Sequence record: MN882542
Source: Escherichia phage JN01
Length of the DNA stretch: 64,000 nt
Reading direction: 5' to 3' (one strand)
The position numbers and the translations under genes are program-made. Shown piece after piece: positions 17,624-40,717 of this stretch. Below the pieces are notes generated by a model. It was not told the DNA's origin. It saw only the letters and a list, made by a program, of their open reading frames with translations, and did not search any database. Numbering within the stretch: the stretch's first letter is position 1; every line of letters starts with the position of its first letter.

Positions 17624-17676
17624 TTGCATCAGACGGGGCGACAAGCCCGATAGCCTTAAACTAGGAGAATCTAAAA

Positions 17677-17883
17677 ATGCTATACGGTCGTGAATTGATG
17701 GTTACAACTAACGTTAACACAAATGTAAAACGTTTTTACATGCAAATTTGTGGCGTATGGTCTAGAATATCAGAAGCTGATTATTGCAACTATGTAGAAA
17801 CGGCAATCAACTCTGATTGTTATCTTACAAGGAATACTAAAAAATTTACGAGACAGACAGCAGTTTATTACTACGATATCTAA
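17677..17883 (+). CDS. hypothetical early protein
   Basis: 68 aa ORF behind conserved leader/RBS. Confidence 0.5.
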   Translation: MLYGRELMVTTNVNTNVKRFYMQICGVWSRISEADYCNYVETAINSDCYLTRNTKKFTRQTAVYYYDI

Positions 17884-17971
17884 TAAAGTACTTTACAAGG
17901 GGTTTAAAAGTTGATATCTTAAGCCCCAGATAAAGAGCTTTATCAACAACCTTAAACTAGGAGATTCAAAA
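17884..17971 (+). promoter_or_regulatory. intergenic cassette type 1 (promoter overlapping stem-loop, conserved leader and RBS)
   Basis: TTTACA, 17 bp, TATCTT; stem GGGGTTTAA...TTAAGCCCC; then AGATAAAGAGCTTTA...CCTTAAACTAGGAGATTCAAAAATG. Confidence 0.55.
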
Positions 17972-18352
17972 ATGGCATATCGTGCACCTAAATTCATCAA
18001 TAAAGACAACTTCCGCAACGCACTGGAAAAATCACTTGACGAGAATTTTACAGGTCAGATTATTGTTGTTCACGCATTCAATTTTAAGTATGACATTAAC
18101 GGGAACAGAATCAACCATTACACGGCAACCATGTTAGATGGTGCGCTTTCAAGTGAAAAAGCCGTACTGAATGCGCTTGCTGGACGTGGTAAAAACCTGA
18201 TAAGATGCGATAAGAGACGTTATCAAGGTGGCGCATATGGTTATGATGATGCTGTTTACCATCTTGAAAATATGGGCTATTCAGTGGAGAAAGCTGGAGC
18301 GTCTCAAATAATCGGTAGTGATGGTTATGTGACAATTTTCAAAATTAACTGA
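17972..18352 (+). CDS. hypothetical early protein
   Basis: 126 aa ORF with conserved start context aaaATGGC. Confidence 0.55.
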   Translation: MAYRAPKFINKDNFRNALEKSLDENFTGQIIVVHAFNFKYDINGNRINHYTATMLDGALSSEKAVLNALAGRGKNLIRCDKRRYQGGAYGYDDAVYHLENMGYSVEKAGASQIIGSDGYVTIFKIN

Positions 18353-18440
18353 TAAAGTACTTTACAAGGGGCTTATAGTTCGATAAAGTAAGCCCCAGAT
18401 AAAGAGCTTTACCACTCAATCCTAAATTGGAGATTCTAAA
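18353..18440 (+). promoter_or_regulatory. intergenic cassette type 1
   Basis: TTTACA-17-TAAAGT with stem GGGGCTTAT...AAGCCCC; conserved leader and AGGAG/TGGAG RBS. Confidence 0.55.
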
Positions 18441-18698
18441 ATGGCTATTATCAAAAACGTTGTAATTACTGCAAAAACTCGCGATGACGCTCGCATCATG
18501 GCGAAAAAGTTAGGCGGGAAAGTTGTTGACAACGGAAAACAATCTGCTGTAAGATGGGGCGTGAAGGCTGATAAACAACTAACCTTAAAACGCAGTTCAA
18601 ACAATCTTTTTAAAGGTGTAAAATCACTCGGTAAAGTGAACGTGTTTACCAAAAAAGGCTATAAAATGCACTTATCATTAACTGGCAATTTAATCTGA
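18441..18698 (+). CDS. hypothetical early protein
   Basis: 85 aa basic ORF. Confidence 0.55.
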   Translation: MAIIKNVVITAKTRDDARIMAKKLGGKVVDNGKQSAVRWGVKADKQLTLKRSSNNLFKGVKSLGKVNVFTKKGYKMHLSLTGNLI

Positions 18699-18788
18699 TA
18701 AAGTACTTTACATGGGGCTTAAAAGCTGATATCTTAAGCCCCAGATAAAGAGCTTTACCACTCAATCCTTAAACTAGGAGATTCAAAA
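18699..18788 (+). promoter_or_regulatory. intergenic cassette type 1
   Basis: Near-identical copy of 17884..17971 (TTTACA-17-TATCTT, GGGGCTTAA stem). Confidence 0.55.
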
Positions 18789-19301
18789 ATGAAAACTGTA
18801 GACGCTACCTTTGAAGTTGTAAAAGAAAAATTCACCATTATTTATGAAGCTATTAATTGCTTTGAAGCAAGCCATAATCTTGATAATTGGAAGTTTACAG
18901 ATGACCATCAAGGCGGCGTGACTGTTAAAAATCCCAACTGTCAGCGTAATGATTTTAAATATGCAATCCCTTTACATTACAGCCTTAAACAGCTTTCAAG
19001 TGACTATGCAAAACAAGGCCGGGAAAATCCATCAAAAGAGGCTTACATCAGCTTACAGAAAGAACTAGAAAGAGATTTGGATGCTTCAGAGTATAACATT
19101 GCCGCTAAAGTTGTGGATGCCAACGGTAAAACGATTTTAGACAGTTTTTATATTGGTTACGCTTTCGATTGGTGCTACAGTGACGGCGATGATTTAGATG
19201 ACAGGCTAAAAGAGGAAGTGAACAACGCAGACGCAGAATCTGAAGTATTAGAACGCTTGGAAGCATTAAAAGATTCAGTGATGAATATCTTTAAGGACTA
19301 A
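18789..19301 (+). CDS. hypothetical early protein
   Basis: 170 aa acidic ORF. Confidence 0.55.
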   Translation: MKTVDATFEVVKEKFTIIYEAINCFEASHNLDNWKFTDDHQGGVTVKNPNCQRNDFKYAIPLHYSLKQLSSDYAKQGRENPSKEAYISLQKELERDLDASEYNIAAKVVDANGKTILDSFYIGYAFDWCYSDGDDLDDRLKEEVNNADAESEVLERLEALKDSVMNIFKD

Positions 19302-19392
19302 ATAGACCTCTTTACACGGGGCTAACAAGCTGATATGATAGCCCCAGATAAAGAGATTTATCAAATTAACCCTTAAACTAGGAGATTCTAAA
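19302..19392 (+). promoter_or_regulatory. intergenic cassette type 1 variant
   Basis: TTTACA-17-TATGAT with stem GGGGCTAAC...AGCCCC; conserved RBS. Confidence 0.5.
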
Positions 19393-19689
19393 ATGAAATT
19401 ATCAAATAAAGTTAGGGAAAACCTTAGCAAATTACTCAATAAAATTGATTTTATCGAGACATCAAGAAATAGTCATGATGTTATGGAATGGTTACACGGC
19501 AAAATAAAAGGCCGTCGTGTAGTGATTTGCTTATGGAACAGTTGCAGGGAGTATAAAAAACCTGTATTGCAAGTTAATATATACGATAATACTTTTAAAA
19601 GTCCTGTTAAATCTAAAAGTGATTTATTAGAATCTTATGAGATAACTGTAAATGGCAAGGTATCACGTAAAGAGGTAACACCATGTTAA
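19393..19689 (+). CDS. hypothetical early protein
   Basis: 98 aa ORF. Confidence 0.55.
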   Translation: MKLSNKVRENLSKLLNKIDFIETSRNSHDVMEWLHGKIKGRRVVICLWNSCREYKKPVLQVNIYDNTFKSPVKSKSDLLESYEITVNGKVSRKEVTPC

Positions 19690-20015
19690 TGATGGGTATC
19701 ACTGCAATCATTGCCATTATAGCACTTTATAAGGCTTACAGCGCATATAATTTGGCAAGTAAGGCAATCACGCAGCAGGTCAATAATAACCTTGTAATGA
19801 GCTTTCTGGAGCGTTTAAGCGATGAACAAATAAAACGGTTAGAAATGAGCTTCAGATTTCAATCAAAAACTTATCAAATCAGCGACATTTTCAAAGATGA
19901 TTTTCAGCTTGTCGATGATTATAACTCTCTGATAAATGCTTTAAATATCAGTGATTTAAAAGATTATCATGCTGTAATAGTTCAAGAATTGAGCAAACGA
20001 AAAAATTCCTCTTGA
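19683..20015 (+). CDS. hypothetical membrane protein
   Basis: 110 aa; hydrophobic N-terminus (MGITAIIAIIALY). Confidence 0.5.
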   Translation: MLMMGITAIIAIIALYKAYSAYNLASKAITQQVNNNLVMSFLERLSDEQIKRLEMSFRFQSKTYQISDIFKDDFQLVDDYNSLINALNISDLKDYHAVIVQELSKRKNSS

Positions 20016-20105
20016 TTTTGGTTTTTAAAACAAGTAAATTACTAATCAACGGGGAGGGAATGACCTTCCCCACTAAGTAAAGTCCTTAAACTAGGAGATT
20101 CGAAA
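20016..20105 (+). promoter_or_regulatory. intergenic cassette type 2 (promoter, then leader stem-loop GGGGAGGG/CCTTCCCC, then RBS)
   Basis: TTGATT, 17 bp, TAAATT; leader ACTAATCAACGGGGAGGGAATGACCTTCCCCACTAAGTAAAGTCCTTAAACTAGGAGATTC. Confidence 0.55.
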
Positions 20106-20378
20106 ATGTATACTACTAACAATGGTCGCACTTTGAACGTAACCCTGCGCCACTATGTGAACGGTGTAATGCACTTCGAGGATTTACAAGCTGAACAACA
20201 TATATTGGATTGGCAACTTGCAGGACTCCAAAAAACTGCTACCGGATACGGGAAAAAGATTCCAACTAGCTGGAAAGTATACTACGAAGGACGTTTGCGC
20301 AGAATTTATCAAGATGTATGCAGCAATAGCGCATCAAGTTACATCATGGTAAAAGGTAAAAAATTACACTTAGTATAA
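20106..20378 (+). CDS. hypothetical early protein
   Basis: 90 aa ORF. Confidence 0.55.
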   Translation: MYTTNNGRTLNVTLRHYVNGVMHFEDLQAEQHILDWQLAGLQKTATGYGKKIPTSWKVYYEGRLRRIYQDVCSNSASSYIMVKGKKLHLV

Positions 20379-20463
20379 AGTACTTTACAAGGGGCTTATA
20401 GTTCGATAAAGTAAGCCCCAGATAAAGAGCTTTATCACTCAATCCTAAATTGGAGATTCTAAA
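20379..20463 (+). promoter_or_regulatory. intergenic cassette type 1
   Basis: Copy of 18353..18440. Confidence 0.55.
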
Positions 20464-20868
20464 ATGGCTATTAATAATCGTGAGTTATCAATCTTAAAAG
20501 CACGTTTGACCGTTAACCGGATTAATGTTATTACGTCATCAGCACCTGATGAGACATTGCACAACATTATCGGGAAGATTCAAAGTGTTATCTTAGACGT
20601 TGAAAGCGTAAAAAACTCACTGGCTGACGTTGCAGCAGGTATCACGCTAGACGGTGCACAATATGAAATGGCTGACATGTTAGGCAAATCTAAGGTAATG
20701 AATAAAGAGCTTGATTTAAAAATGTTTCGTTTTGCTGTTAAAGTGTGGCTATCTGTCGAGTATGACGCAAATTTTGCAATCGCTGACTTTTTTGCAACAT
20801 GGTTGCAACGTAATTTAACAAATCATGATTTTCGTGATATCTGCGATGTAATTTACGCAGAACTATAA
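20464..20868 (+). CDS. hypothetical early protein
   Basis: 134 aa ORF. Confidence 0.55.
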   Translation: MAINNRELSILKARLTVNRINVITSSAPDETLHNIIGKIQSVILDVESVKNSLADVAAGITLDGAQYEMADMLGKSKVMNKELDLKMFRFAVKVWLSVEYDANFAIADFFATWLQRNLTNHDFRDICDVIYAEL

Positions 20869-20971
20869 AAATTTTTCTTGATTTTGGTTTTTAAAACAAG
20901 TAAATTACTAATCAACGGGGAGGGAAGGACCTTCCCCACTAAGTAAAGTCCTTAAACTAGGAGATTCAAAA
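20869..20971 (+). promoter_or_regulatory. intergenic cassette type 2
   Basis: Copy of 20016..20105 with one base change in the stem-loop. Confidence 0.55.
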
Positions 20972-21172
20972 ATGGCTATTATTAACGGCTTAAACATTGA
21001 AACTACTCACATCAAAGACATTAAAGTCGGTGATGTAGTCCTTTCCCACGGCGTAGAAAAAACTGTCACTGCAAAGGATATCAAAGAGGATTCTTTCATG
21101 GGTAGAACTCTCTTCGGTGATTCTTATTGCTTAGGTTATCTTGCAGTTTTAAAAGTTGTCAAAAATAACTGA
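20972..21172 (+). CDS. hypothetical early protein
   Basis: 66 aa ORF. Confidence 0.5.
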   Translation: MAIINGLNIETTHIKDIKVGDVVLSHGVEKTVTAKDIKEDSFMGRTLFGDSYCLGYLAVLKVVKNN

Positions 21173-21267
21173 TAAAGTACTTTACAAGGGGCTTAAAAGC
21201 TGATATCTTAAGCCCCAGATAAAGAGCTTTACCACTAAATCAAGTCCTTAAACTAGGAGATTCAAAA
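21173..21267 (+). promoter_or_regulatory. intergenic cassette type 1
   Basis: TTTACA-17-TATCTT with GGGGCTTAA stem; conserved leader and RBS. Confidence 0.55.
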
Positions 21268-21810
21268 ATGAAATGCTTTCACGGTACTACTCAAGAAAAC
21301 TTCATCAACTTAATTAATAACGGTGATAAACCATCAGGCGCATGGAATTGTTCGGATATGGATGGCAATTTTTACGTTTATCCAGAAAATAAAATCTATG
21401 GCGACGATGAGGAAGAAATAATCTCTGAAGGCATTCAACAAGCTTTAGGCAATGCCACTATAACGGCAGCTTTTCAGATGAAAACTCAAAATATTGTTAT
21501 CTTAGAACTTGATATCCCAGAGGATGAGTTGAATGATGATTATTCTTGTGATAATATGTCGAGCGTAGCAAGTTTTACAGAATACTTCGATTTAAATTGG
21601 ATTAAAAAGGTTTACGTAACCGAGTTTAATGCAATGTTTTCACCTTTTTGTCTTCCTTCACTGGATAACCCAAATTTAAACTATCTTGAGGAGACATTAG
21701 AACTACTTGCTAAAAGTGTTCAACAGTCGGACAGTATTCAGGTTTTTTGTGACATCATGGATACACTGACAGGAAACATTACAGAAGAGGATTTAAAGAG
21801 CTTTTTATAA
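21268..21810 (+). CDS. hypothetical early protein
   Basis: 180 aa acidic ORF. Confidence 0.55.
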   Translation: MKCFHGTTQENFINLINNGDKPSGAWNCSDMDGNFYVYPENKIYGDDEEEIISEGIQQALGNATITAAFQMKTQNIVILELDIPEDELNDDYSCDNMSSVASFTEYFDLNWIKKVYVTEFNAMFSPFCLPSLDNPNLNYLEETLELLAKSVQQSDSIQVFCDIMDTLTGNITEEDLKSFL

Positions 21811-21876
21811 TAACCTATACAATCACCTTATAAATACTGATTATCCCCTCATAGGGGCTTTTAGGAGGCTTAAATC

Positions 21877-22119
21877 ATGCTTACAACCATTTACCTCATC
21901 CTTTCTATTTGTAATGGTCATTCATGCGATTTTAAAGGGCTTGAGGAGTTTACAGGGAGTAAAGAAAATGCCGTTCAAGTGTGCCAGATAGCAAGGCAAG
22001 ACTATCCCGCCAGTGATGATATACAATGTTACTTTAAGACAGAAGATGAAGACGGTATCTATTTTGACAGCGTAGATGGTCAATATGAAATTATCATTGA
22101 AAAGACTAGACAAGCCTGA
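21877..22119 (+). CDS. hypothetical protein
   Basis: 80 aa ORF, hydrophobic N-terminus, TAGGAGG RBS. Confidence 0.5.
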   Translation: MLTTIYLILSICNGHSCDFKGLEEFTGSKENAVQVCQIARQDYPASDDIQCYFKTEDEDGIYFDSVDGQYEIIIEKTRQA

Positions 22120-22198
22120 TAAAAGTCTGTAAATTGTCAATCAACGGGAGGTAATAACCTCCCCACTAAGTAAAGTCCTTAAACTAGGAGATTCTAAA
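22120..22198 (+). promoter_or_regulatory. intergenic cassette type 2 variant
   Basis: TAGACA-17-TAAATT; stem GGGAGGTAATAACCTCCCC; conserved RBS. Confidence 0.5.
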
Positions 22199-22540
22199 AT
22201 GGCTTATGTAACCGTAATTACCGATAAAGCTGGCTCATCTTGGTCAACTCAAGTAAGTGATAAGATGTCACCTATGCAGTGCCTAAAATACTTTGAGCAA
22301 TGGAACAAAGGCGAGAATGTCAGCCCCTTTCAAGTCATGCAGATTATCCATACAGATAACGAAGGGAATAAAACTGTTTTGAATAGTGAGTACTACGCAA
22401 CCCGATTTGAAACGAGATGTAAAGCAATGAAGCTTTTGCGTGAGTCTGGTTATTCTCATATCGCCTCACTAATCTGGGATGACCTGCTAAAAAATCAGCG
22501 TATCAGCTATGTAAAACCTGAAAAAATATTCATCAGTTAA
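22199..22540 (+). CDS. hypothetical early protein
   Basis: 113 aa ORF. Confidence 0.55.
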   Translation: MAYVTVITDKAGSSWSTQVSDKMSPMQCLKYFEQWNKGENVSPFQVMQIIHTDNEGNKTVLNSEYYATRFETRCKAMKLLRESGYSHIASLIWDDLLKNQRISYVKPEKIFIS

Positions 22541-22760
22541 TCAATAACTTACAAAAAACTTTTTAAAAAGTATTGACAATACCCCTTGACATTGGTAAAT
22601 TTGTTCGAGGGGGTTTATCTAAAAGGGATTAACTTAAAAGATTCTTTATAGATAAGCTTAAAAAATTGCTTGCAATCAGATATCAAAACAAGTAAATTAC
22701 TAATCAACGGGAGGGATAACCTCCCTACTAAGTAAAGTCCTTAAACTAGGAGATTCAAAA
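22541..22760 (+). promoter_or_regulatory. extended intergenic region ending in a type 2 cassette
   Basis: Tandem TTGACA boxes near 22572 and 22586, then TTGCAA-17-TAAATT, stem GGGAGGGATAACCTCCC and RBS. Confidence 0.45.
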
Positions 22761-23291
22761 ATGAACAAGTTCAAAGCTATCAACTTCATTCGTTCAAATA
22801 GTGTTATGTCAAAGCCTGTTAAAGATACCTATGAATTTCGTTGCAATGGGGTGCATTTTGCAACCATCACCAAATCAGAAAACGGAGCTTATTACATCCA
22901 TCGCCGTAATGTTGCAACCGTTGTTGTCTCTCACTTTATGCAAGCTGTCGCGGAACTTCTCCCGATGTTTTTAGGGCTTTACTTGGATGAGTGTAAAAAC
23001 GTTCACAATCACGTTAAAAACCTTTTAAACAGCTATAAAATGGCTTATGAACGTTCTATCAAGTCATTGAACAAGTTTTACAACGCACCTGAAAACACTG
23101 TGTCAATAGCCTATGGTGTAAGCGGTGAAATGGTAAACTTATCCAATGTGGAAGAAATCAAGCTGCATGATTTACGCCCTAACGGTTACGCTAAAACCAT
23201 CGGTGAAGGTTTAACTTTCAATATCAAGAACTTAGAAAAAACTTTAAAAGATATTGAAAAAGATATTGACGAGACAATCAAAAGTCTGTAA
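22761..23291 (+). CDS. hypothetical early protein
   Basis: 176 aa ORF. Confidence 0.55.
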   Translation: MNKFKAINFIRSNSVMSKPVKDTYEFRCNGVHFATITKSENGAYYIHRRNVATVVVSHFMQAVAELLPMFLGLYLDECKNVHNHVKNLLNSYKMAYERSIKSLNKFYNAPENTVSIAYGVSGEMVNLSNVEEIKLHDLRPNGYAKTIGEGLTFNIKNLEKTLKDIEKDIDETIKSL

Positions 23292-23357
23292 ATTGTCAAT
23301 CAACGGGGAGGGAATGACCTTCCCCACTAAGTAAAGTCCTAAACTGGAGTTATCAAG
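23292..23357 (+). promoter_or_regulatory. intergenic cassette type 2 variant
   Basis: TAAATT box and GGGGAGGGAATGACCTTCCCC stem; divergent RBS GGAG. Confidence 0.45.
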
Positions 23358-23621
23358 ATGGAAAACGTCGAACTGACCACACTTTTACAAATTGCAACCG
23401 ACAAAGAGGATGTAGCATTATTCCACCGTATCGAAAGTGATTTGTTCAATGGTGAAATCATTAAAGAATCTTACGAAGTGGTCGGATTCAAAGATGGTAA
23501 ATCATTTGGATTCTTTGACCTCGACAAAGGCAACGCTATTACAAAGTATGATGTTTTATCTTGTGAGATTCTGACAAAATACAACGAAAAAAGACTTGCA
23601 ACATACGCCAACATGCAGTAA
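23358..23621 (+). CDS. hypothetical early protein
   Basis: 87 aa ORF. Confidence 0.5.
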   Translation: MENVELTTLLQIATDKEDVALFHRIESDLFNGEIIKESYEVVGFKDGKSFGFFDLDKGNAITKYDVLSCEILTKYNEKRLATYANMQ

Positions 23622-23686
23622 ATTACTAATCAACGGGAGGGATGACCTCCCTACTAAATAAAGTCCTTAAACTAGGAGATTCTAAA
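23622..23686 (+). promoter_or_regulatory. intergenic cassette type 2
   Basis: TTGCAA-17-TAAATT overlapping the end of the previous ORF; stem GGGAGGGATGACCTCCC; conserved RBS. Confidence 0.5.
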
Positions 23687-23935
23687 ATGGCAACTATCCG
23701 CGCAATTGTAAATTCTTATGGCTGCTACACTCTGGACGCTAAATTTGATATTGGTGGGACTGATGAGTGTTTCGAACTGGTGAAGACAGTCATTAAACAA
23801 GTTATCCCAGACTATAACCCTACTGATGACTTCTGGAAAGATGCAGTAAAAGAGGCGTTGAACGATGAATATCATTACCATTATTGGGGTGACTTGATTG
23901 TCTCACTGTACTACAATAAACAAGGTTGCAACTAA
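23687..23935 (+). CDS. hypothetical early protein
   Basis: ORF-track start 23642 lies inside the cassette; conserved cassette ATG at 23687 gives MATIRAIV. Confidence 0.5.
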   Translation: MATIRAIVNSYGCYTLDAKFDIGGTDECFELVKTVIKQVIPDYNPTDDFWKDAVKEALNDEYHYHYWGDLIVSLYYNKQGCN

Positions 23936-23961
23936 TCGACGCAACGGGGCAAATAGCCCCA

Positions 23962-23996
23962 GATACCTTTACAGCCCCTTAAATGGGGCTTTTTTA
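23962..23996 (+). terminator. intrinsic terminator closing the rightward early block
   Basis: AGCCCC-ttaaat-GGGGCT hairpin followed by TTTTTTAC. Confidence 0.6.
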
Positions 23997-25534
23997 CGTC
24001 TTATCAAATCCTATACAACCCTTTTCCTTTCCTTTCCAGAATCTTACTAGACCTTAAAAAGCAATAACTTTATAGCCTTTTACTAAGTCAATTAATTGGC
24101 CTTGTTAATAATCCCTTAAATAAAAGACAATAACCCCAGAAAGGGGGTAACCCATTTAAACGCCCTATAAAGCCCTATAACGGCCTTTTTAACCTAACTT
24201 AAGGGATTGCATTAACTAACCTTAAAAAGCCCTTTATAAAGCTTCTCAGAGCCTTAAAAGAATCTTATAAGGGTGTAAGCTTTATTATCTCGTTAGCTAT
24301 CTTGTGAACTACTAAAAAGGGCTTGTTAGTGTCTTAAAAGTATGTTATAGGGGCTATAAAGTTGCTTAAAAGTAGCTTAAAAGTTACGTAAATGCTAGCC
24401 CCCTTAACATTTTCTTAACAATTTCTTAACAAACCCTACATAGTTATGCTTTTAAGACACTTGTTAGCAACTTGTTAGCCCCTTGTTAAATCTCTGTTAA
24501 AACCACGTAAAAGCCTTGTAAGAGCCTTTGACATAGCCTTTAAAGCTCCTGTAAAGCCCTATAAAGAGCTTTCTACATAGTTGGTGTGTAATTACTAGAA
24601 AGAGACTAAAAAGAGCTTATAAGGAGCTATAAAGGGCTTTTAAGAGGGCTATTTAAAGGGTCACTAAGAGGGAAAGGGAACGATAAGAAAAGAGATAGTG
24701 ACCATGTTAATAGCTTGTTAAAAAGATTAAACACTTGTTAGGAACTTGTTAATTATCTTAACAAAATAACTCTTTAAAATTAACTTGTTAGCTCTTGTTA
24801 GTCATCTGTTAAGACTCTGTAAAGACCATGTATCAACTGTTAAGAAACTGTTAAGTTCTTGTTAGTTCTGTTAAGAATCTGTTAAGACCTCTGAAGAGAT
24901 GTTAAGAGGATGTAGTAGCTGTTAAGAGATTGTTAAGGATATTTTAAAATTCTGCAAAGGGATGGTAAGGGAGCTGTTAAGGGCTACCAAGCAGATATAC
25001 ATCCTAATCAGATATTTTTCAGTTCCTTCAAAGACCCTAAAAAATGACTTGATAGTCCTATTTTATAAAAATTTTAAAATTCTGAATAATTACCTAGACA
25101 GTCTTCTAAAAATACAGGCATAAACAGGCTTATAAGATACCTTGTTAGTACCGTGTTAGACCTTGTGAGATAAGGTCTGTAAAGATATTCCTGTTAAGTT
25201 TGTTAAAACAGTCTATATAGAGGCTTAGTATTTCCTAGTGAACACCTATAGAGGGTATCATAGCTGACATAGAGATTAAGAGGTGTATAGGAGCTTCTAA
25301 GAGGGTGTAGAGGTATGGTTAAGGTGATTGTATAGGTTGTTAAGAAGGCTTGTTAGAAGAGTGTTTAGAAGGGCTATACAGAGGGGCTATTAAGACCACT
25401 AGATAGATACTAAGATACTATATAGTACTATATAACTATATAGAGAGTAAGATTAAGAAGGATGTTAAGAAGGGTAGATATTTTATTCACATATGATGGT
25501 GACCCAGAGGTTGGGACAACCGATAAAATTTTAT
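23997..25534. repeat. ORF-free island densely packed with short motifs (C/T)TGTTA(A/G), CTTAAAAG, CTATAAAG
   Basis: No ORF of 60 aa or more on either strand; 30 or more TGTTA-type motifs, about 11 bp apart between 24735 and 24990. Confidence 0.7.
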
Positions 25535-25565
25535 AAAAATTAAAAAGCCCCCAATTAAGGAGGCT
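25535..25565 (-). terminator. intrinsic terminator closing the leftward block
   Basis: Minus-strand RNA reads GCCUCC-UUAAUU-GGGGGC then UUUUUAAUUUUU. Confidence 0.55.
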
Positions 25566-25576
25566 CTTAAGATATT

Positions 25577-26170
25577 TTAAACCAGTGTTTCCAGAACTGT
25601 TTTCAATGATGACTTGGTTGTCTGATAAAAATGAGTAAATCCATTGTTATTATCGAATACCTGCATCATGATATCATCTCCCTTGATTGGGTACACTCGG
25701 ATATCATAGTGAAAACCATTAAAGACACAAGAACCACTACAGAATCCTCTAAAGTCATCCACTGAGATGTACTCTTCATGACCTGTGATTTTTATACAAA
25801 CACCTTTACTCGGTCTCTTAGGGTTGATATCTTCCATCACAGACATACTCTGACCACCAAGAGACACTATAGTGACCACTTTACGGTTCTTCTGTCTAAA
25901 GTACATCTTAACTTTCTGTAAAGTGTCTTCATAGAACGGATAAGACTTCTCTACAAAGATTCCTTCTAATGGCTCTTTACCGTTTACAATACCTCTGGTA
26001 TGACGTACTGCAAAGATAATTTGTTGGAGCCAATCAAAATTTTCTTCGGATAGTGCTTCTCGAATATCATTCCAATCAAGGACTAGATAGTTACCTTCAA
26101 CATCTTTTAAGTTATCTTTTTCCATATCTATCACACCATTATCGTAAAACTTGGTAATCTGGTACTGCAA
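25577..26170 (-). CDS. hypothetical protein
   Basis: 197 aa ORF. Confidence 0.5.
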   Translation of the reverse strand: MQYQITKFYDNGVIDMEKDNLKDVEGNYLVLDWNDIREALSEENFDWLQQIIFAVRHTRGIVNGKEPLEGIFVEKSYPFYEDTLQKVKMYFRQKNRKVVTIVSLGGQSMSVMEDINPKRPSKGVCIKITGHEEYISVDDFRGFCSGSCVFNGFHYDIRVYPIKGDDIMMQVFDNNNGFTHFYQTTKSSLKTVLETLV

Positions 26171-35234: not shown

Positions 35235-35308
35235 CTCTGTTTAGCTCAGCTTGGTAGAGCGTTCCGTTTGGGGCGGTAAGGCCGGAGGTTCAAGTCCTCC
35301 AACAGAGA
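35235..35308 (+). tRNA. tRNA-Pro(TGG)
   Basis: Hand-folded cloverleaf, anticodon loop TTTGGGG, T-arm GGAGGTTCAAGTCCTCC, CCA encoded. Confidence 0.7.
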
Positions 35309-35318
35309 CCAAATTAAT

Positions 35319-35392
35319 GTTCCAGTAGACAAAATGGTAAAGTCACCACTCTTTCAAAGTGGATATTTGAGGGTTCAAATCCCTTCTGGAAT
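35319..35392 (+). tRNA. tRNA-Glu(TTC)
   Basis: Acceptor GTTCCAG/CTGGAAT, anticodon stem-loop CCACT-CTTTCAA-AGTGG, T-loop TTCAAAT, CCA encoded. Confidence 0.7.
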
Positions 35393-35403
35393 GCCAGTTT
35401 TGA

Positions 35404-35476
35404 CAGAAGACCAATTACAGCAAGTTTAATCTTATTCATCTGACACGAAATCGGACAAAGAAGAGATTTGGTCTGG
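35404..35476 (+). ncRNA. stem-closed structured element A (Y-RNA-like candidate)
   Basis: 5' arm CAGAAGACCAA pairs with 3' arm TTGGTCTGG; conserved ACAGCAA box after 5' arm. Confidence 0.35.
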
Positions 35477-35487
35477 TCATTAAGAAT

Positions 35488-35561
35488 TGCGGGTATAGAG
35501 AAAGGGCGTCTCACATGTCTCATTAGCATGGTATCGGCAGGTTCGACTCCTGCACCCGCCT
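35488..35561 (+). tRNA. tRNA-Met or Ile2 (CAT), slightly atypical acceptor/D junction
   Basis: Anticodon stem-loop CATGT-CTCATTA-GCATG, T-arm GCAGGTTCGACTCCTGC, CCA encoded; 1-72 pair mismatched. Confidence 0.55.
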
Positions 35562-35570
35562 CCAATTTTG

Positions 35571-35630
35571 CAGAAGACCGTATTCAGCAACAAACTACTT
35601 TTTGCGGATAAAAGAAAAAACACGGTCTGG
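35571..35630 (+). ncRNA. stem-closed structured element B (Y-RNA-like candidate)
   Basis: 5' arm CAGAAGACCGT pairs with 3' arm ACGGTCTGG; the two bases beside GACC covary relative to element A (AA/TT vs GT/AC). Confidence 0.35.
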
Positions 35631-35641
35631 CAATGTATTAA

Positions 35642-35715
35642 GGTTAGGAAGCACATAAGGTATGTGCGGTCGCCTGTTAAGCGAATGGCACAGGGTTCGA
35701 ATCCCTGACTAACCG
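35642..35715 (+). tRNA. tRNA-Asn(GTT)
   Basis: Acceptor GGTTAGG/ACTAACC, anticodon loop CTGTTAA, T-arm CAGGGTTCGAATCCCTG, CCA encoded. Confidence 0.65.
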
Positions 35716-35727
35716 CCAAATTTAAAT

Positions 35728-35812
35728 GTGTCGTTATCCCGTAGATGGTAGCGGTGGGGACTGTAAATCCCTTGTCATTGAGACTCGGTAGGTTCGACTC
35801 CTACACGGCACA
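35728..35812 (+). tRNA. tRNA-Tyr(GTA), class II
   Basis: Anticodon stem-loop GGGGA-CTGTAAA-TCCCT, long variable arm, T-arm GTAGGTTCGACTCCTAC, CCA encoded. Confidence 0.7.
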
Positions 35813-35821
35813 CCAAATAAA

Positions 35822-35895
35822 GGTTATGTAGTTTAACTGGTTAAAATACTCCCCTGTCACGGGAGATGATGAGGGTTCAAATCCCTTCGTAACCG
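35822..35895 (+). tRNA. tRNA-Asp(GTC)
   Basis: Acceptor GGTTATG/CGTAACC, anticodon stem-loop CTCCC-CTGTCAC-GGGAG, T-loop TTCAAAT, CCA encoded. Confidence 0.7.
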
Positions 35896-35984
35896 CCAAA
35901 TTATAATAAGTATTTCAAAATGCTGTTTGAGAGGGCTATTTAGCCTCTCCCTTAAAGAGTTCTTACGAGTATTCTTTAAAGGAG

Positions 35985-36061
35985 CAGAAGACCAAATTCA
36001 GCAAGTACGTATGATATTTTCAAGCCAATTTAATTTTGAAAAAATTTAAAACTTGGTCTGG
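35985..36061 (+). ncRNA. stem-closed structured element C (Y-RNA-like candidate)
   Basis: 5' arm CAGAAGACCAA, ATTCAGCAA box, 3' arm TTGGTCTGG. Confidence 0.35.
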
Positions 36062-36074
36062 CTCAACAAATTTA

Positions 36075-36206
36075 CAGAAGACCGTTTACAGCAAAACTTA
36101 AACAATCTATTTCTCCGGTAAAGAAAAGGCGAAGGTTCGATTCCTTCACTCGGCAGGTGTCGAGTTGGTGTAATGGTAGCACTTAAGATGATAAACAACG
36201 GTCTGG
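36075..36206 (+). ncRNA. stem-closed element D with embedded tRNA-like module (YrlA-like Y RNA candidate)
   Basis: Arms CAGAAGACCGTT / AACGGTCTGG enclose hairpin TTTCT-CCGGTAA-AGAAA, T-arm GAAGGTTCGATTCCTTC, capped helix ACTCGGC-AGGT-GTCGAGT and D-arm GTGTAATGGTAGCAC. Confidence 0.45.
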
Positions 36207-36216
36207 TAATTATCTT

Positions 36217-36354
36217 TGTAGATAAGTTATTAAGCTTACCTGTGAGTATGCGACCACAAAGGGTGAAAGGGTAAATTCTAGATTTAAACCCAACAATGCA
36301 CATCGCTACAGACCTTAAGCAAGTCTGGGTAGCTTATCTACAAAGATAATTTAA
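36217..36354 (+). ncRNA. structured element E: 21 bp inverted repeat pair around a CAGACC...GGTCTG hairpin
   Basis: TTATCTTTGTAGATAA at 36221 and its reverse complement TTATCTACAAAGATAA at 36335; inner hairpin CAGACCTTAAGCAAGTCTGG. Confidence 0.3.
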
Positions 36355-36355
36355 T

Positions 36356-36428
36356 GGAAGTGTAGCAGAATGGTGATGCGGCAGACTTTTAATCTGACAG
36401 GCGATGGGTTCGAATCCCTCCACTTCTA
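36356..36428 (+). tRNA. tRNA-Lys(TTT)
   Basis: Acceptor GGAAGTG/CACTTCT, anticodon stem-loop CAGA-CTTTTAA-TCTG, T-loop TTCGAAT, CCA encoded; paralog of 38064..38135 with compensatory stem changes. Confidence 0.6.
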
Positions 36429-36435
36429 CCAATAT

Positions 36436-36509
36436 GGTTCAGTCGCAGATAAGGTAATGCAGGGGTTTCATAAGCCCTATGAATGTGGGTTCGATTCCCA
36501 TCTGAACCT
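36436..36509 (+). tRNA. tRNA-Met(CAT)
   Basis: Acceptor GGTTCAG/CTGAACC, anticodon stem-loop GGGGT-TTCATAA-GCCCT with three G-C pairs, T-arm GTGGGTTCGATTCCCAT, CCA encoded. Confidence 0.65.
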
Positions 36510-36513
36510 CCAA

Positions 36514-36586
36514 GCTGGTATAGTTAAGAAGGTTATAACACTCCCCTGATAAGGGAATATCGGTGGTTCGATTCCACCTACCAGTA
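36514..36586 (+). tRNA. tRNA-Ile(GAT)
   Basis: Acceptor GCTGGTA/TACCAGT, anticodon loop CTGATAA, T-arm GGTGGTTCGATTCCACC, CCA encoded. Confidence 0.7.
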
Positions 36587-36604
36587 CCAATTTCAATAAA
36601 GTTG

Positions 36605-36633
36605 TTGACATTGAGATGTGACTACTTTATAGT
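36605..36633 (+). promoter_or_regulatory. candidate sigma70-type promoter inside tRNA cluster
   Basis: TTGACA, 17 bp spacer, TATAGT. Confidence 0.5.
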
Positions 36634-36956
36634 AACTGAAAATAATTCAGCATATGTATAATTCAAACACCAATACATGAGCGTTAGACGTAACACAATG
36701 TGGGGAAATTTGTTGTACATATTCTGAATAGTTTTCGTTGCGTAGCGTCTATTTTGCAAATTTAAAATAAATGCAAACGACAATGTTTTTCTGGCAGTAG
36801 CTTGATAGGCTAAACACCAGTGAGGTCTTCCAATCCCTCATCAAAGAATTTGGCGTACTCGCCCACGGTATGATTAATAAGGTGGGCAACATTCTAAAGG
36901 GTATCCCTTATGGGGCTTGGCTTAAATGCAATGAGTACCCTTTAAAATGTTAATTA

Positions 36957-37035
36957 CGGGGCGTATCTCAGCGGTCTTCTAAACCGCCGTTAACCGAGTA
37001 AGTGGAGTATGCGGGTTCGAGTCCTGCCGCCTCGA
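36957..37035 (+). tRNA. atypical tRNA-like gene, Arg(TCT)-type anticodon loop, no recognisable D-arm
   Basis: Acceptor CGGGGCG/CGCCTCG, anticodon stem-loop GCGGT-CTTCTAA-ACCGC, T-arm GCGGGTTCGAGTCCTGC, CCA encoded; only 7 nt between acceptor and anticodon stem, 23 nt variable region. Confidence 0.4.
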
Positions 37036-37053
37036 CCAATTTTGGATGAAATC

Positions 37054-37401
37054 ATGAAAACTTGTATTAGGTGCAAACTTAGCAAGGATGAAAGTGATTT
37101 CTACATGAAAGATGGTAGGAGAACTCATTCATACTGTAAAAAGTGTGTTAATGAGCAAACCATAGAAAGACAAAGAGCACTTAAACTTTCAGCTATTGAG
37201 TACAAAGGTGGAGTTTGTCATGATTGTGGTAAAAGGTATCATCCAGCAGTGTATGACTTCCATCATTTGAATCCTTCAGAGAAAGATTTTAACATTGGTC
37301 ATAGAAAAAGTCTTAAGTTCTCTCAGGAGCTAAAGGACGAACTTGACAAATGTGTTTTGCTATGTTCAAATTGCCATAGGGTAAGACATGCAAAGTATTA
37401 G
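37054..37401 (+). CDS. HNH endonuclease (homing-endonuclease-like) inside the tRNA cluster
   Basis: CxxC...CxxC zinc pairs with HNH core DFHHLNPSEKDFNIGH...CSNCHRVRH; ORF-track start 37009 falls in the tRNA-like T-arm, ATG at 37054 preferred. Confidence 0.75.
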   Translation: MKTCIRCKLSKDESDFYMKDGRRTHSYCKKCVNEQTIERQRALKLSAIEYKGGVCHDCGKRYHPAVYDFHHLNPSEKDFNIGHRKSLKFSQELKDELDKCVLLCSNCHRVRHAKY

Positions 37402-37538
37402 TTAGCAGATTGCTTAGACGACCTTATCGGGTCTCCGTGTAAGGAGGTGGTCTGTATCTCATGTTTTCCAGAACATGTAAATAATCTGAGAAGGGGCTTT
37501 ACAGTGTTGTGAGAATACGGTAAGCTTCGAATTATAGT

Positions 37539-37618
37539 GTGGGACGATGTTAAGACTCTAAGGCATGAGCAACGGCCTCCAAAACCGTTTCAAAGTGGTT
37601 CAACTCCTCCGTCCCATG
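37539..37618 (+). tRNA. atypical tRNA-like gene, Trp(CCA)-type anticodon loop, oversized D region and weak T-stem
   Basis: Acceptor GTGGGAC/GTCCCAT, anticodon loop CTCCAAA in stem ACGG/CCGT, T-loop TTCAACT, CCA encoded; may be degenerate. Confidence 0.35.
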
Positions 37619-37633
37619 CCAAAGTCTTATTAG

Positions 37634-37721
37634 GGGTAGGTAGCGGCTAATGGTAGCCAAACTGTCTTGAAAACAGTTGCCACTGTAGAGATACGGTGAG
37701 GGTTCGACTCCTTTACTTACC
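37634..37721 (+). tRNA. tRNA-Ser(TGA), class II
   Basis: Anticodon stem-loop ACTGT-CTTGAAA-ACAGT, long variable arm, T-arm GAGGGTTCGACTCCTTT. Confidence 0.7.
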
Positions 37722-37879
37722 GCCTAATAAGATTTAAAGCCAAGCTTCATTCGGATGTTGCTTTGGTATCCCTCGTGTATTGTCGTACACACTGATAAAG
37801 CACCTAGTAGGTGTCACGGAGAAGAGATAATATCAAGCTCTCCAAAGGTTCTAGTCACCGGATTAAACAAGACTATGCA

Positions 37880-37908
37880 AAGACCTATTTAGGTCTTTTT
37901 AGAGGGCT
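37880..37908 (+). terminator. hairpin with T-tract inside tRNA cluster
   Basis: AAGACCTA-ttt-AGGTCTT followed by TTTAGAG; repeats the AGACC/GGTCT arm motif. Confidence 0.4.
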
Positions 37909-37979
37909 TCTAAGGTTATTACAGCTTGTTGTGGAACCTTGTTGCTTAGGTTCTTAGAAGTTCTCTAAAAAGATTTAAT

Positions 37980-38053
37980 GCACCTATAGCCCAACTGGTA
38001 GAGGCAGCAGACTTAGAATCTGCTCAGTGTGAGTTCGAATCTCTCTAGGTGTA
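37980..38053 (+). tRNA. tRNA with anticodon TAG (Leu by anticodon), short variable arm
   Basis: Anticodon stem-loop GCAGA-CTTAGAA-TCTGC, 3 bp D-stem, 5 nt variable loop, discriminator A, CCA encoded. Confidence 0.5.
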
Positions 38054-38063
38054 CCAAATTAAT

Positions 38064-38135
38064 GCAGGTGTAGCAAAATGGTTATGCGGCTGACTCTTAA
38101 TCAGTAAGACGATGGGTTCAATTCCCTCCACCTGT
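38064..38135 (+). tRNA. tRNA-Lys(CTT)
   Basis: Anticodon stem-loop CTGA-CTCTTAA-TCAG, T-loop TTCAATT, CCA encoded. Confidence 0.6.
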
Positions 38136-38144
38136 ACCAAACAT

Positions 38145-38218
38145 TGGGGATGTAGTTTACATGGTTAAAACATAAGTTTTGCAAACTTAAGTACAGGGTT
38201 CAATTCCCTGCTTCTCCA
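38145..38218 (+). tRNA. tRNA-Ala(TGC)
   Basis: D-arm GTTT...AAAC, anticodon stem-loop TAAGT-TTTGCAA-ACTTA, T-arm CAGGGTTCAATTCCCTG, CCA encoded. Confidence 0.7.
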
Positions 38219-38226
38219 CCAATTAG

Positions 38227-38298
38227 TGCATCCATAGTTTAAACGGGAAAATTACAGTCTTCCAAACTGAGGTTGAGGGTTCGATTCCCTCTGGATGC
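38227..38298 (+). tRNA. tRNA-Gly(TCC)
   Basis: Acceptor GCATCCA/TGGATGC, anticodon loop CTTCCAA, T-arm GAGGGTTCGATTCCCTC, CCA encoded. Confidence 0.7.
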
Positions 38299-38308
38299 TC
38301 CAAATTAA

Positions 38309-38382
38309 TGCTCCTATCGTATAATTGGCTATTACGGTTGCCTTGTAAGCAACTTATCAGGGTTCGAATCCTTGTGGGAGCA
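38309..38382 (+). tRNA. tRNA-Thr(TGT)
   Basis: Anticodon stem-loop GTTGC-CTTGTAA-GCAAC, T-arm CAGGGTTCGAATCCTTG, CCA encoded. Confidence 0.7.
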
Positions 38383-38388
38383 CCAATT

Positions 38389-38476
38389 CAGAGGTCAAGT
38401 GAAAGACCGCTGGTGTCAACTGAAGACCGTAACAAATTCCACGGAGTTGAGTTAGCGGCACAACTTCAGACCTCTT
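38389..38476 (+). ncRNA. structured element F (multi-stem, GAAGACCGT motif)
   Basis: Outer stem CAGAGGTC/GACCTCT; nested pairs CCGCT/AGCGG, CAACT/AGTTG, CCGT/ACGG; contains CTGAAGACCGTAAC related to elements A-D. Confidence 0.35.
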
Positions 38477-38480
38477 TCAT

Positions 38481-38552
38481 ACTCGCTTAGTTTATATGGT
38501 AAAACATCACCCTTACAAGATGGAGAAAAAGGTTCAAGTCCTTTAGTGAGTA
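38481..38552 (+). tRNA. tRNA-Val(TAC)
   Basis: Acceptor ACTCGCT/AGTGAGT, D-arm GTTT...AAAC, anticodon loop CTTACAA (one stem mismatch), T-arm AAAGGTTCAAGTCCTTT, CCA encoded. Confidence 0.55.
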
Positions 38553-38556
38553 CCAT

Positions 38557-38631
38557 GTTCCAGTATCCCAATTGGCAGAGGATGCAAGCTCAAACCTTGT
38601 ACTAGTGACGGTTCGAATCCGTCTTGGAACA
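38557..38631 (+). tRNA. tRNA with anticodon CAA (Leu by anticodon), short variable arm
   Basis: Anticodon stem-loop GCAAG-CTCAAAC-CTTGT, T-arm GACGGTTCGAATCCGTC, discriminator A, CCA encoded. Confidence 0.5.
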
Positions 38632-38639
38632 CCAATTTT

Positions 38640-38712
38640 GCAGGATTAGTTCAAATGGATAGAGCAACAGTCTACGAAGCTGTTAATAGGGGTTCGAATC
38701 CCTTATCCTGCG
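38640..38712 (+). tRNA. tRNA-Arg(ACG)
   Basis: Acceptor GCAGGAT/ATCCTGC, anticodon stem-loop ACAGT-CTACGAA-GCTGT, T-loop TTCGAAT, CCA encoded. Confidence 0.7.
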
Positions 38713-38733
38713 CCAGATAAGTAAGAGTGATTT

Positions 38734-38976
38734 ATGCAAACATTAATCGTCGTTGAACATGAAAATTCCAATAGCATTGAGTTTGTAAGGGTTCCCACTA
38801 TAGATACCCACATTTTCTTGAAAGTAGGCTGGGAATGTGACCCAATAAGAGTAGAAAAATTTATTGGTCATTACTTTGGTGGAAGACAACTTAAAAGTGT
38901 TAATTTTGAGACAATGTTACCAGAAAACTCAGAAACAAATAATAATGTTTACCTCCTTACAAGGATTAGACAATGA
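38734..38976 (+). CDS. hypothetical protein
   Basis: 80 aa ORF within tRNA cluster, weak RBS. Confidence 0.35.
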   Translation: MQTLIVVEHENSNSIEFVRVPTIDTHIFLKVGWECDPIRVEKFIGHYFGGRQLKSVNFETMLPENSETNNNVYLLTRIRQ

Positions 38977-39530
38977 GATATTTGAAGTATGTTTCATGGA
39001 TTTTCTTAGCTTTGCTAGAGCCATTTGCAGCAATCTTAGCAGTCATCTTAGCACCTTTTGTAGTTCTATTCTACAGTGAGAAGAGAGGACACTTACCTTT
39101 CGGCTTCAGATGGATGGAAACATATGACAACCCAATTGATGGTGATAAAGGTCATGTCGAACGATGGGCTAAGATTAGAAAGATTGGTAAGCTTGGTATC
39201 TATATGCAGAGAGTTGGTTGGCTCTGGAGAAACAAAGCTTATAACTTCTCTTACCATGTGTTAGGAAGAGATGTAAAAGATGTTACTAAGTGGAAAGGTA
39301 ATATCAATGTAAGTTCTAACCCTGAAGATAATCAGACAGGTTATCTCCTAATGTGGAACAGTAATGCTTGGGGATTATTCGCTTTTATCCCATCAATTAA
39401 ACTCTTTGGTAAGCAATTCTACTGGAGAATTTATGTTGGATGGAAACTTAAAAGTGTTGTTCCAAAAGAAAGAGCATTCTCAAGGGAAAGAGTTATGTTG
39501 GCATTCTTTATTCATCCACTGAGAAAGTAA
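38973..39530 (+). CDS. hypothetical membrane protein
   Basis: 185 aa; hydrophobic N-terminus (WIFLALLEPFAAILAVILAPFVVLF), Trp-rich. Confidence 0.45.
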   Translation: MRYLKYVSWIFLALLEPFAAILAVILAPFVVLFYSEKRGHLPFGFRWMETYDNPIDGDKGHVERWAKIRKIGKLGIYMQRVGWLWRNKAYNFSYHVLGRDVKDVTKWKGNINVSSNPEDNQTGYLLMWNSNAWGLFAFIPSIKLFGKQFYWRIYVGWKLKSVVPKERAFSRERVMLAFFIHPLRK

Positions 39531-39538
39531 AGATTTAA

Positions 39539-39611
39539 AGGGGATTAGTTTACAAGGTTAAAACCTCGGTCTTTGAAATCGAAGAAGTTGGTTCAATTCC
39601 AACATCCCCCG
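39539..39611 (+). tRNA. tRNA-Gln(TTG)
   Basis: Anticodon stem-loop TCGGT-CTTTGAA-ATCGA, T-arm GTTGGTTCAATTCCAAC, CCA encoded; 1-72 pair mismatched. Confidence 0.6.
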
Positions 39612-39616
39612 CCAAT

Positions 39617-39692
39617 GCTCCATTACTCCAATTGGCAGAGAGGCCAGACTTAAAATCTGTGTTATGTATCGGTTCGAATCCGATATGGAGTA
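39617..39692 (+). tRNA. tRNA with anticodon TAA (Leu by anticodon), short variable arm
   Basis: Anticodon loop CTTAAAA, T-arm ATCGGTTCGAATCCGAT, discriminator A, CCA encoded. Confidence 0.5.
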
Positions 39693-39700
39693 CCAAATTT

Positions 39701-39773
39701 AGCGGTATAGCATAACTGGTAATGCAGCAGTCTCTGAAGCTGTCTTATTAAGGTTCAAATCCTTATGCCGCTG
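39701..39773 (+). tRNA. tRNA-Gln(CTG)
   Basis: D-arm GCAT...ATGC, anticodon stem-loop GCAGT-CTCTGAA-GCTGT, T-arm TAAGGTTCAAATCCTTA, CCA encoded. Confidence 0.55.
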
Positions 39774-39807
39774 CCACTTCTAAGGATTCTTACGAGAGCC
39801 CTTAAAT

Positions 39808-39880
39808 GTGGCCTTATCATAAATGGTAATGACCCATGCTGTGAACATGGTCTATACGGGTTCAAATCCCGTAGGTCACC
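39808..39880 (+). tRNA. tRNA-His(GTG)
   Basis: Anticodon stem-loop CCATG-CTGTGAA-CATGG, T-arm ACGGGTTCAAATCCCGT, CCA encoded. Confidence 0.7.
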
Positions 39881-39888
39881 CCAATTTA

Positions 39889-39963
39889 TAGTCCAAGTAG
39901 CTTATATGGTTAAAGCGCGTGTCTGAAAAACATGAGAAGAGGGTTCAAATCCCACTGGACTAC
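39889..39963 (+). tRNA. tRNA-Phe(GAA), irregular acceptor/D junction
   Basis: D-arm GCTT...AAGC, anticodon stem-loop CGTGT-CTGAAAA-ACATG, T-loop TTCAAAT; acceptor register ambiguous. Confidence 0.5.
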
Positions 39964-39981
39964 CAATTTCAAAGGTGCTTA

Positions 39982-40716: not shown

Positions 40717-40717
40717 T

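Follow-up and report, generated by a model that had tools for sequence, protein, structure and literature searches.

In phage T7, duplication of the terminal repeat is explained by a model in which staggered nicks are followed by strand-displacement synthesis. In other systems, including the pac hexamers of P1, the pacL and pacR boxes of SPP1 and the R sites of lambda cosB, the cleavage position is flanked by a short word in several copies, which are bound by the small terminase or have a regulatory effect on cutting, and which bend the DNA. Such sites consist of 3-7 elements within 100-200 bp and serve headful or cos packaging. A further arrangement is found in T5, a virulent and tRNA-rich coliphage, in which a terminal repeat of about 10 kb encodes the pre-early genes and includes a non-coding, repeat-dense injection-stop region. 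Here, we examined a stretch of 64,000 nucleotides from Escherichia phage JN01 (record MN882542; hereafter, the window), in which an island at positions 23940-25576 that is free of long open reading frames (ORFs) is filled with copies of the short word TGTTA(A/G). We report that this island is likely to be the terminus region, or concatemer junction, of the phage, and that its phased arrays are predicted binding sites for terminase or an accessory protein.

The ends of T7, read directly, comprise a 160-bp repeat with three CCTAAAG words inside it and 11 (C/A)TAAAG words at 176-356, mostly 13 bp apart, and the packaging signals of this phage map to the concatemer junction (Chung & Hinkle 1990, as cited in PMC13236587). 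In the Felix O1-like phages, short direct terminal repeats were inferred for Felix O1 by Whichard et al. (PMC3185647), and direct terminal repeats have been reported also for Felix O1 and FO1a. For UAB_Phi87, Bardina et al. determined a terminal repeat of 608 bp by Bal31 digestion and run-off sequencing, with two defined fragments being Bal31-sensitive (PMC4837284). Within the literature searched, published Felixounavirus work covers the existence and length of the repeat, with no TGTTAAG arrays, boundary words or 1.6-kb setting, and a search for the motif returned primer sequences only and no description of arrays. The repeat and its general design are already known, the word array is apparently undescribed, and the cis-acting packaging signals of Felix O1-like phages have had no prior description.

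Matches to the island were found in 256 phage records, with identities of up to 93.6%; almost all belong to Felixounavirus or Mooglevirus (subfamily Ounavirinae), and one record among them carries an organism name that starts with 'Staphylococcus'. Judged from its sequence, the window phage is a Felixounavirus, i.e. a Felix O1-like myovirus.

Chromosome ends and the terminal repeat

GenBank records that begin or end inside the island have breakpoints that cluster at about 24393-24404 and again some 600 bp to the right. The records of SeKF_63 and SPJ41 carry an exact 613-bp repeat at each end, which corresponds to 24398-24988 of the window, and the record of I14.1, whose termini were determined with PhageTerm according to its genome announcement (PMC11737134), carries an exact end repeat of 581 bp that begins and finishes on the same bases. 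Each of the three records begins at GCTA/GCCCCCTTAACA (the slash marks the cut), reaches the end of the repeat at TGTTAAGGGCTACC/AAGCAGATATACA and finishes in ...GGGCTACC. The ends are fixed and non-permuted, the terminal bases being identical in three records from different laboratories. In the window, the repeat was placed by homology, at 86-94% identity. The record of GE_vB_7A starts at 24404 and ends at 24986. Two further records, NJ12 (127-bp end overlap) and RPN213 (no overlap), were considered as true ends and set aside as arbitrary assembly breaks. The I14.1 record (PP892526, vB_EcoM_I14.1) is filed under Demerecviridae; Tequintavirus, yet its 89-kb genome, its repeat and its island are Felixounavirus-like, and the taxonomy label is probably wrong.

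Measured ends are available for UAB_Phi87. The first base of its record (JN225449.1, 87603 bp) falls in the tRNA region and not at a physical end, and therefore the distance between the boundary words and the sizes of the SpeI fragments were used instead. The boundary words lie 614 bp apart (608 bp measured), and they predict terminal SpeI fragments of 2747 and 4435 bp, compared with the reported 2819 and 4322 bp. The SpeI match places the ends in the island, with the exact base not confirmed. In a Kolesnikvirus contig, a relative of Erwinia phage phiEa21-4, an exact 444-bp repeat occurs at both ends at the homologous position and with the same motif; it extends from TTAGCCAC to GGCCACTAA, and the next sequence in the genome is GTAGATATACA.

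These ends indicate that 24398-24988 of the window (591 bp) is the direct terminal repeat, with edges that are uncertain by a few bases. A packaged molecule would carry the repeat at each of its ends, and a replicating concatemer or a collapsed assembly a single time per unit. The island would be a junction of the T7 type, at which concatemers are cut to give fixed ends and a repeat of about 590 bp.

Each predicted boundary is flanked by a motif copy, and the two copies are in mirror orientation, so that TGTTAAGGG(GG)C...WAGCA is read outward on both sides. In this outward reading, the left boundary is TGTTAAGGGGGC/TAGCA (reverse complement) and the right boundary is TGTTAAGGGCTACC/AAGCA, both cuts falling one base before AGCA. 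The last direct copy of the main array adjoins the right boundary. At the left edge, the inverted triplet that opens the repeat is matched, imperfectly and in inverse orientation, by 24910-24947 (38 nt, 79%) and by 24957-24983. A feature resembling pac sites is thus present in that repeated short elements adjoin the cleavage positions, with 24 copies between the boundaries. The boundary words are near-invariant in eight genomes. In an alignment of seven islands (the window, three further Felixounavirus, two Mooglevirus and one unclassified phage), the left boundary block is nearly invariant and TGTTAAGGGCTACCAAGCAGATATACA at the right boundary is invariant in 7 of 7; the latter is found in Suspvirus SUSP2 too.

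The phased TGTTA(A/G) array and its conservation

The preliminary description of the island, made from the sequence and a list of ORFs, had reported a region devoid of ORFs of 60 amino acids or more, bracketed by convergent terminators and saturated with 30 or more copies of (C/T)TGTTA(A/G) that recur about once per helical turn, together with related words. Most of this was borne out. The island has a GC content of 34% and no ORF of at least 60 amino acids on either strand (the longest are listed in Table 1), and both terminators were recovered by a terminator scan and are annotated in relatives, the left one in AYO145A and Moogle and the right one in AYO145A, wV8 and Moogle. On the forward strand, TGTTA(A/G) occurs 29 times, compared with 1.98 ± 1.38 (maximum 8) in 2000 dinucleotide-preserving shuffles of the island, which served as the control for motif counts. 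The figure of 30 or more holds for the six-nucleotide core on both strands, with four inverted copies bringing the total to 33; for the stricter seven-nucleotide form (C/T)TGTTA(A/G), the count is 25 (1.14 expected). The related words CTTAAAAG and CTATAAAG are indeed abundant, with four copies each where 0.26 and 0.18 are expected.

Motif density is 17.7 copies per kb within the island, compared with 1.15 per kb across the remainder of the window, and when the 64 kb were divided into 500-bp bins, the three most motif-rich bins were all located in the island. Counted by part on both strands, the density is 41 per kb in the terminal repeat, falling to about 9 per kb in the arms and to about 1.8 elsewhere in the window; 24 of the 33 copies (20 direct and 4 inverted) lie within the repeat. 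The spacing is equally unlike that of random placements. Between 24398 and 24988, 11 of the 19 spacings of adjacent forward-strand copies are 10-11 bp, a number attained in none of 10000 random placements (maximum 7). The Fourier power at 11-11.25 bp is 7.7-8.2 and exceeds all 104 background windows (maximum 4.2), while the 3-bp periodicity of coding sequence is missing (power 0.4-0.6, compared with a background mean of 3.8). Several short arrays with a period of 10-11 bp were also detected by Tandem Repeats Finder.

In the IMG/VR database, a scan for TGTTAAG-N4-TGTTAAG gave mostly single chance matches, and large arrays were confined to Ounavirinae contigs. Some unrelated viral contigs of low GC content in IMG/VR carry clusters of 3-6 TGTTAAG/CTTAACA copies, mostly at 11-bp spacing, in non-coding sequence dissimilar to the island (Table 1); these were found via the two-copy pattern, and partly may reflect ascertainment bias.

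Comparison among relatives indicates constraint on the words themselves. In the seven-island alignment, motif columns are 85% identical to distant genera and other columns 69% (p = 1.4e-7). Motifs, spacing and boundary words are common to four genera, and the spacing series (…11, 20, 11, …, 9, 11, 20, 20, 11, 44, 169, 11) is kept in relatives and in SUSP2, which has a syntenic island with a TGTTAAG array. Every indel of at least 4 nt inside the repeat measures 11, 21-22 or 33 nt. Phage phiEa21-4 is similar at the protein level only, but here too a syntenic island is present (about 1.4 kb), with 18 direct and 9 inverted copies of TGTTA(A/G), in which AAGCAGATATACA is kept and a spacing run of 11, 11, 9, 20, 20, 20, 11, 22 resembles that of the main array; its left arm uses another word, CTTCTAA(A/G). 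The motif is conserved in phages of Escherichia, Salmonella, Citrobacter and Erwinia. This conservation, phiEa21-4 included, implies that the TGTTAAG array and the terminus position are ancestral to the subfamily and that the arm words are lineage-specific.

The two arms differ from the repeat in their word content. The left arm is rich in near-palindromic words such as CCTTAAAAG, CCCTATAAAG and CTTATAAG and has ten forward-strand copies of T[ATG][AT]AAAG, and CCT[TA]+AAAG occurs eight times in the island and five times in the remaining 62 kb. A block of the left arm at 24240-24290 retains 93% identity over seven genomes, and the identity of the right arm to other genera is 0.49-0.85. The left arm also contains a third terminator-like hairpin, ACCCCCTTTCTGGGGT with a T-rich tail, on the minus strand at 24133-24148, and a similar sequence occurs in SUSP2.

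Table 1. Coordinates of features in and around the island of phage JN01, in window positions unless a contig is named; a slash marks a predicted cut.
Feature	Position	Strand	Remarks
Last ORF of rightward gene block	23642-23935	+	Stops at left terminator
ORF of 50 amino acids	23898-24050		Among the longest ORFs of the island
Left Rho-independent terminator	23973-23996	+	Stem AGCCCCTTAAATGGGGCT at 23973-23990, then T run
Left non-coding arm	23997-24397 (401 bp)		Unique sequence; would lie just inside right virion end
Left boundary (predicted)	24394-24399		GCTA/GCCCCC; cut inside the sole GCTAGC of the 64-kb window
Direct terminal repeat (predicted)	24398-24988 (591 bp)		Placed by homology
Inverted triplet CTTAACA	24404-24432	-	Exact 11-bp spacing; opens the repeat; near-invariant in 7 genomes
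Four direct copies, 11-bp spacing	24462-24500	+	Pattern retained in Moogle, Sf19, pEC-M719 and SUSP2
ORF of 35 amino acids	24627-24734	-	Among the longest ORFs of the island
Main phased array	24705-24981	+	16 direct and 1 inverted copies; spacings 9-11, 20, 28, 31 and 44 bp
ORF of 53 amino acids	24962-25123		Longest ORF of the island
Right boundary block (predicted)	24975-25003		TGTTAAGGGCTACC/AAGCAGATATACATC; cut after 24988
Right non-coding arm	24989-25535 (547 bp)		Unique; would lie just inside left virion end; 7 direct copies, TATAG/ACTATATAG repeats
Right Rho-independent terminator	25533-25568	-	Stem 25568-25543, then T run
Last ORF of leftward gene block	25577-26170	-	Stops at right terminator
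Large terminase subunit gene (terL)	41322-42938	+	Terminase_6N (8.7e-43), Terminase_6C (4.4e-33), PHROG 979
Small word cluster, IMG/VR contig L096	426-745		
Small word cluster, IMG/VR contig L045	5970-6080		
Small word cluster, IMG/VR contig L102	160-330		
Small word cluster, IMG/VR contig L076	340-440		

In annotated relatives, the island is an empty gap that separates convergent gene blocks, with the terminators marked in some. As the flanking terminators face inward on both sides, transcription would be stopped from entering the island, and the junction is kept transcription-free because the genes on both sides run towards it and stop at the terminators. Upstream of the island, the intergenic regions at 17650-23700 hold their own repeat cassettes: ten copies of CCTTAAACTAGGAGATTCAAAAATG, an identical ribosome-binding site with start codon; five copies of a unit of about 99 nt bearing the hairpin GGGGCTTA..TAAGCCCC; and a unit with the hairpin GGGGAGGG..CCTTCCCC that is present 4-6 times, in some cases behind a promoter-like TTGATT-N17-TAAATT. 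These cassettes probably correspond to the 57-bp and 39-bp repeats of Felix O1 (PMC3185647). Elsewhere in the window, an array of 25 tRNA genes on the forward strand (35235-40890) ends just upstream of a 66-amino acid ORF (41115-41315), and an ORF of 491 amino acids that follows terL (42946-44421) occupies the position of the portal gene by analogy with phiEa21-4. Across positions 1-64000, GATC has no copies where about 213 are expected under a 3-mer Markov model, and many 6-bp palindromes are absent too, with CTGCAG, ATGCAT, CAGCTG and GAATTC missing where 24, 16, 15 and 9 are expected, which looks like strong avoidance of restriction or Dam sites.

Packaging model and alternative explanations

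The phased word array probably guides DNA cutting and packaging. We infer that a sequence-specific protein binds the TGTTA(A/G) words and that TerL, the enzyme expected to cut both boundaries, is linked to the island. The binder could be the terminase holoenzyme, a small subunit or an accessory protein. With sites about one turn apart and mostly in one orientation, the protein would bind along a single face of the helix, bending or wrapping the DNA. The bound arrays would then position TerL to nick opposite strands at GCTA/GCC and CTACC/AAGCA, and strand-displacement synthesis after the staggered nicks would duplicate the repeat, as in the model for T7. The preliminary description had listed an iteron origin, a partition or packaging site and a decoy or regulatory array as candidates, with a long structured RNA as an alternative. 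The evidence agrees with its broad notion of an element that acts in cis and is probably bound by protein, and favours the packaging site among the options; the physical ends of the chromosome had escaped the description.

Several points weigh against the junction and packaging model. The boundaries in the window phage itself are placed by homology alone. Among relatives, GE_vB_7A starts 6 nt inside and BPS15Q2 14 nt outside the consensus left boundary, and the agreement for UAB_Phi87 is approximate (614 and 608 bp, with the fragments within about 3%). Indels in units of 11 bp could stem from simple repeat slippage rather than from selection for helical phase. Some 30 sites over 1.2 kb far exceed the needs of known pac or cos sites, and nine copies lie outside the repeat. 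To our knowledge, the role of the analogous T7 arrays is not firmly established. Finally, neither a DNA-binding protein nor a small terminase was found when eight neighbouring proteins and the 66-amino acid ORF were searched against PHROGs and Pfam, which returned families of unknown function only. This ORF, which lies upstream of terL, was considered as a small terminase and rejected. Its product has an isoelectric point of 4.4 and a predicted two-helix hairpin (mean predicted local distance difference test score 83) with no relative in PDB; being acidic and a helical hairpin, it is unlikely to bind DNA.

Other functions for the island were weighed against packaging. The idea that it specifies a long, structured RNA without coding function, or several clustered micro-ORFs missed by annotation, draws on the 2-5 'hypothetical proteins' that several GenBank records place under it and on the long helices given by in silico folding, which arise because the words are near-palindromic; the fold energies, obtained for two 1001-nt stretches, carry no weight because they lack shuffle controls. 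The three longest ORFs, however, lose their start codon or gain stops or frameshifts in relatives, and with no 3-bp periodicity present, an array of small ORFs does not explain the region. As for RNA, the best Rfam match in the island has an E value of 0.027 and 25 bits against a gathering score of 90, and at gathering thresholds Rfam detected in the whole window only tRNAs, located elsewhere. Promoter-like sites in a sigma-70 scan number 9 against 8.3 ± 2.8 in shuffles, and the inward-facing terminators block entry from both sides. The structured RNA of the preliminary description finds no support, and we regard either form of this explanation as extremely improbable. The iteron origin, in which the repeats would bind an initiator that melts nearby AT-rich DNA, did not hold up either. 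Many short direct repeats at a spacing of about 11 bp in AT-rich, non-coding DNA are what such an origin would contain, and the small 11-bp-spaced TGTTAAG arrays that unrelated viral contigs carry in non-coding DNA might function as iterons or operators. The cumulative GC skew nevertheless has a local maximum at the island and its minimum near 32 kb, a terminus-like pattern that tracks convergent transcription. DnaA boxes are not enriched, with a single near-match, and no initiator or helicase-loader domain could be recognised in the neighbouring proteins. The location in a terminal repeat explains the region without any origin, and an origin is highly improbable.

Amplification of an 11-bp unit by slippage, in a terminal repeat that tolerates junk, would leave an array with no function. 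It would account for the indels among relatives in units of 11, 22 and 33 bp and for the tandem arrays of 10-11-bp period, but hardly for the persistence of core word, order and spacing over four genera and of the word with similar spacings in a fifth that is similar at the protein level, for motif columns that are significantly better conserved than spacer columns, or for a conserved orientation pattern with the inverted triplet at the left edge. Such an expansion is therefore highly improbable. An unlikely though more serious alternative is that the arrays bind a host or co-injected phage protein, rather than terminase, on the DNA that enters first, and thereby shield the ends from nucleases such as RecBCD, or pause or control the passage of DNA into the cell in the manner of the T5 injection-stop region. 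It would suit the location of arrays at both physical ends, the first 1 kb or so at either end being free of genes and of promoter excess, a number of sites that exceeds the needs of a cutting signal, and the conservation of the motif across phages of four host genera. It is opposed by the inverted motif copies exactly at both cuts, which point to the cutting machinery, by the lack of a known candidate protein, and by the failure of the motif to fit any host-factor consensus tested (IHF 0, DnaA one near-match, Chi 0); scans of the island for GATC, IHF and Chi sites gave no matches. A role in end protection or entry control could coexist with one in packaging. A bolder proposal, which we put forward tentatively and hold to be rather unlikely, is that the arrays are more than a terminase signal, and that a dedicated sequence-specific protein loads onto them and polymerises on one side of the helix over about 600 bp at each chromosome end, forming a nucleoprotein 'telomere cap' shared by the Ounavirinae. 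Such a cap would serve to protect or organise the chromosome ends while the DNA enters, replicates or forms concatemers, with a polarity set by the inverted triplet at the left edge.

A junction with packaging signals, which remains our preferred explanation, has practical consequences. Felix O1-like phages, a classic tool for typing Salmonella, are also common components of cocktails for therapy and biocontrol. The boundary words and the phased array provide a rule for orienting and checking assemblies of Felixounavirus, Mooglevirus, Suspvirus and Kolesnikvirus, many GenBank records of which break arbitrarily inside the island or carry spurious genes there. They also define the minimal DNA to try in the construction of engineered genomes or of phagemids that can be packaged.

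Comparison with known systems

The direct terminal repeats reported for Felixounavirus (608 bp in UAB_Phi87) are the same element as 24398-24988 of the window. In comparison with the pac and cos sites of P1, SPP1 and lambda, the island has about 33 elements over 1.2 kb and two predicted cuts about 590 bp apart, and no small terminase was found among the proteins searched. It shares with T5 a repeat-dense non-coding stretch inside a direct terminal repeat; we know of no two-step DNA transfer in Felix O1-like myoviruses.

The differences from T7 are numerous. The word is TGTTAAG here and CCTAAAG in T7, the spacing is 11 bp here and 13 bp in T7, and most copies lie inside the repeat here, whereas in T7 they lie beside it. 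The repeat is about four times longer here, the whole non-coding junction measures 1.6 kb, and the two systems share no sequence homology. Promoters and origins lie near the ends of T7, which is transcribed inward from the left end, whereas here the genes at both ends point outward and there is no excess of promoters. The phage analysed here is a myovirus with a large terminase of the T4 type (Terminase_6). The layout is nonetheless that of the T7 and T3 junctions with their SRL/SRR heptamer arrays, the nearest analogue in design: a short, exact and non-permuted direct terminal repeat in a non-coding junction, with a 7-nt word that occurs mostly in one orientation and at a fixed short spacing, inside and beside the repeat. 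The Felix O1-like junction may thus offer a tractable second system, beside T7, for the role of short-repeat arrays at terminal repeats.

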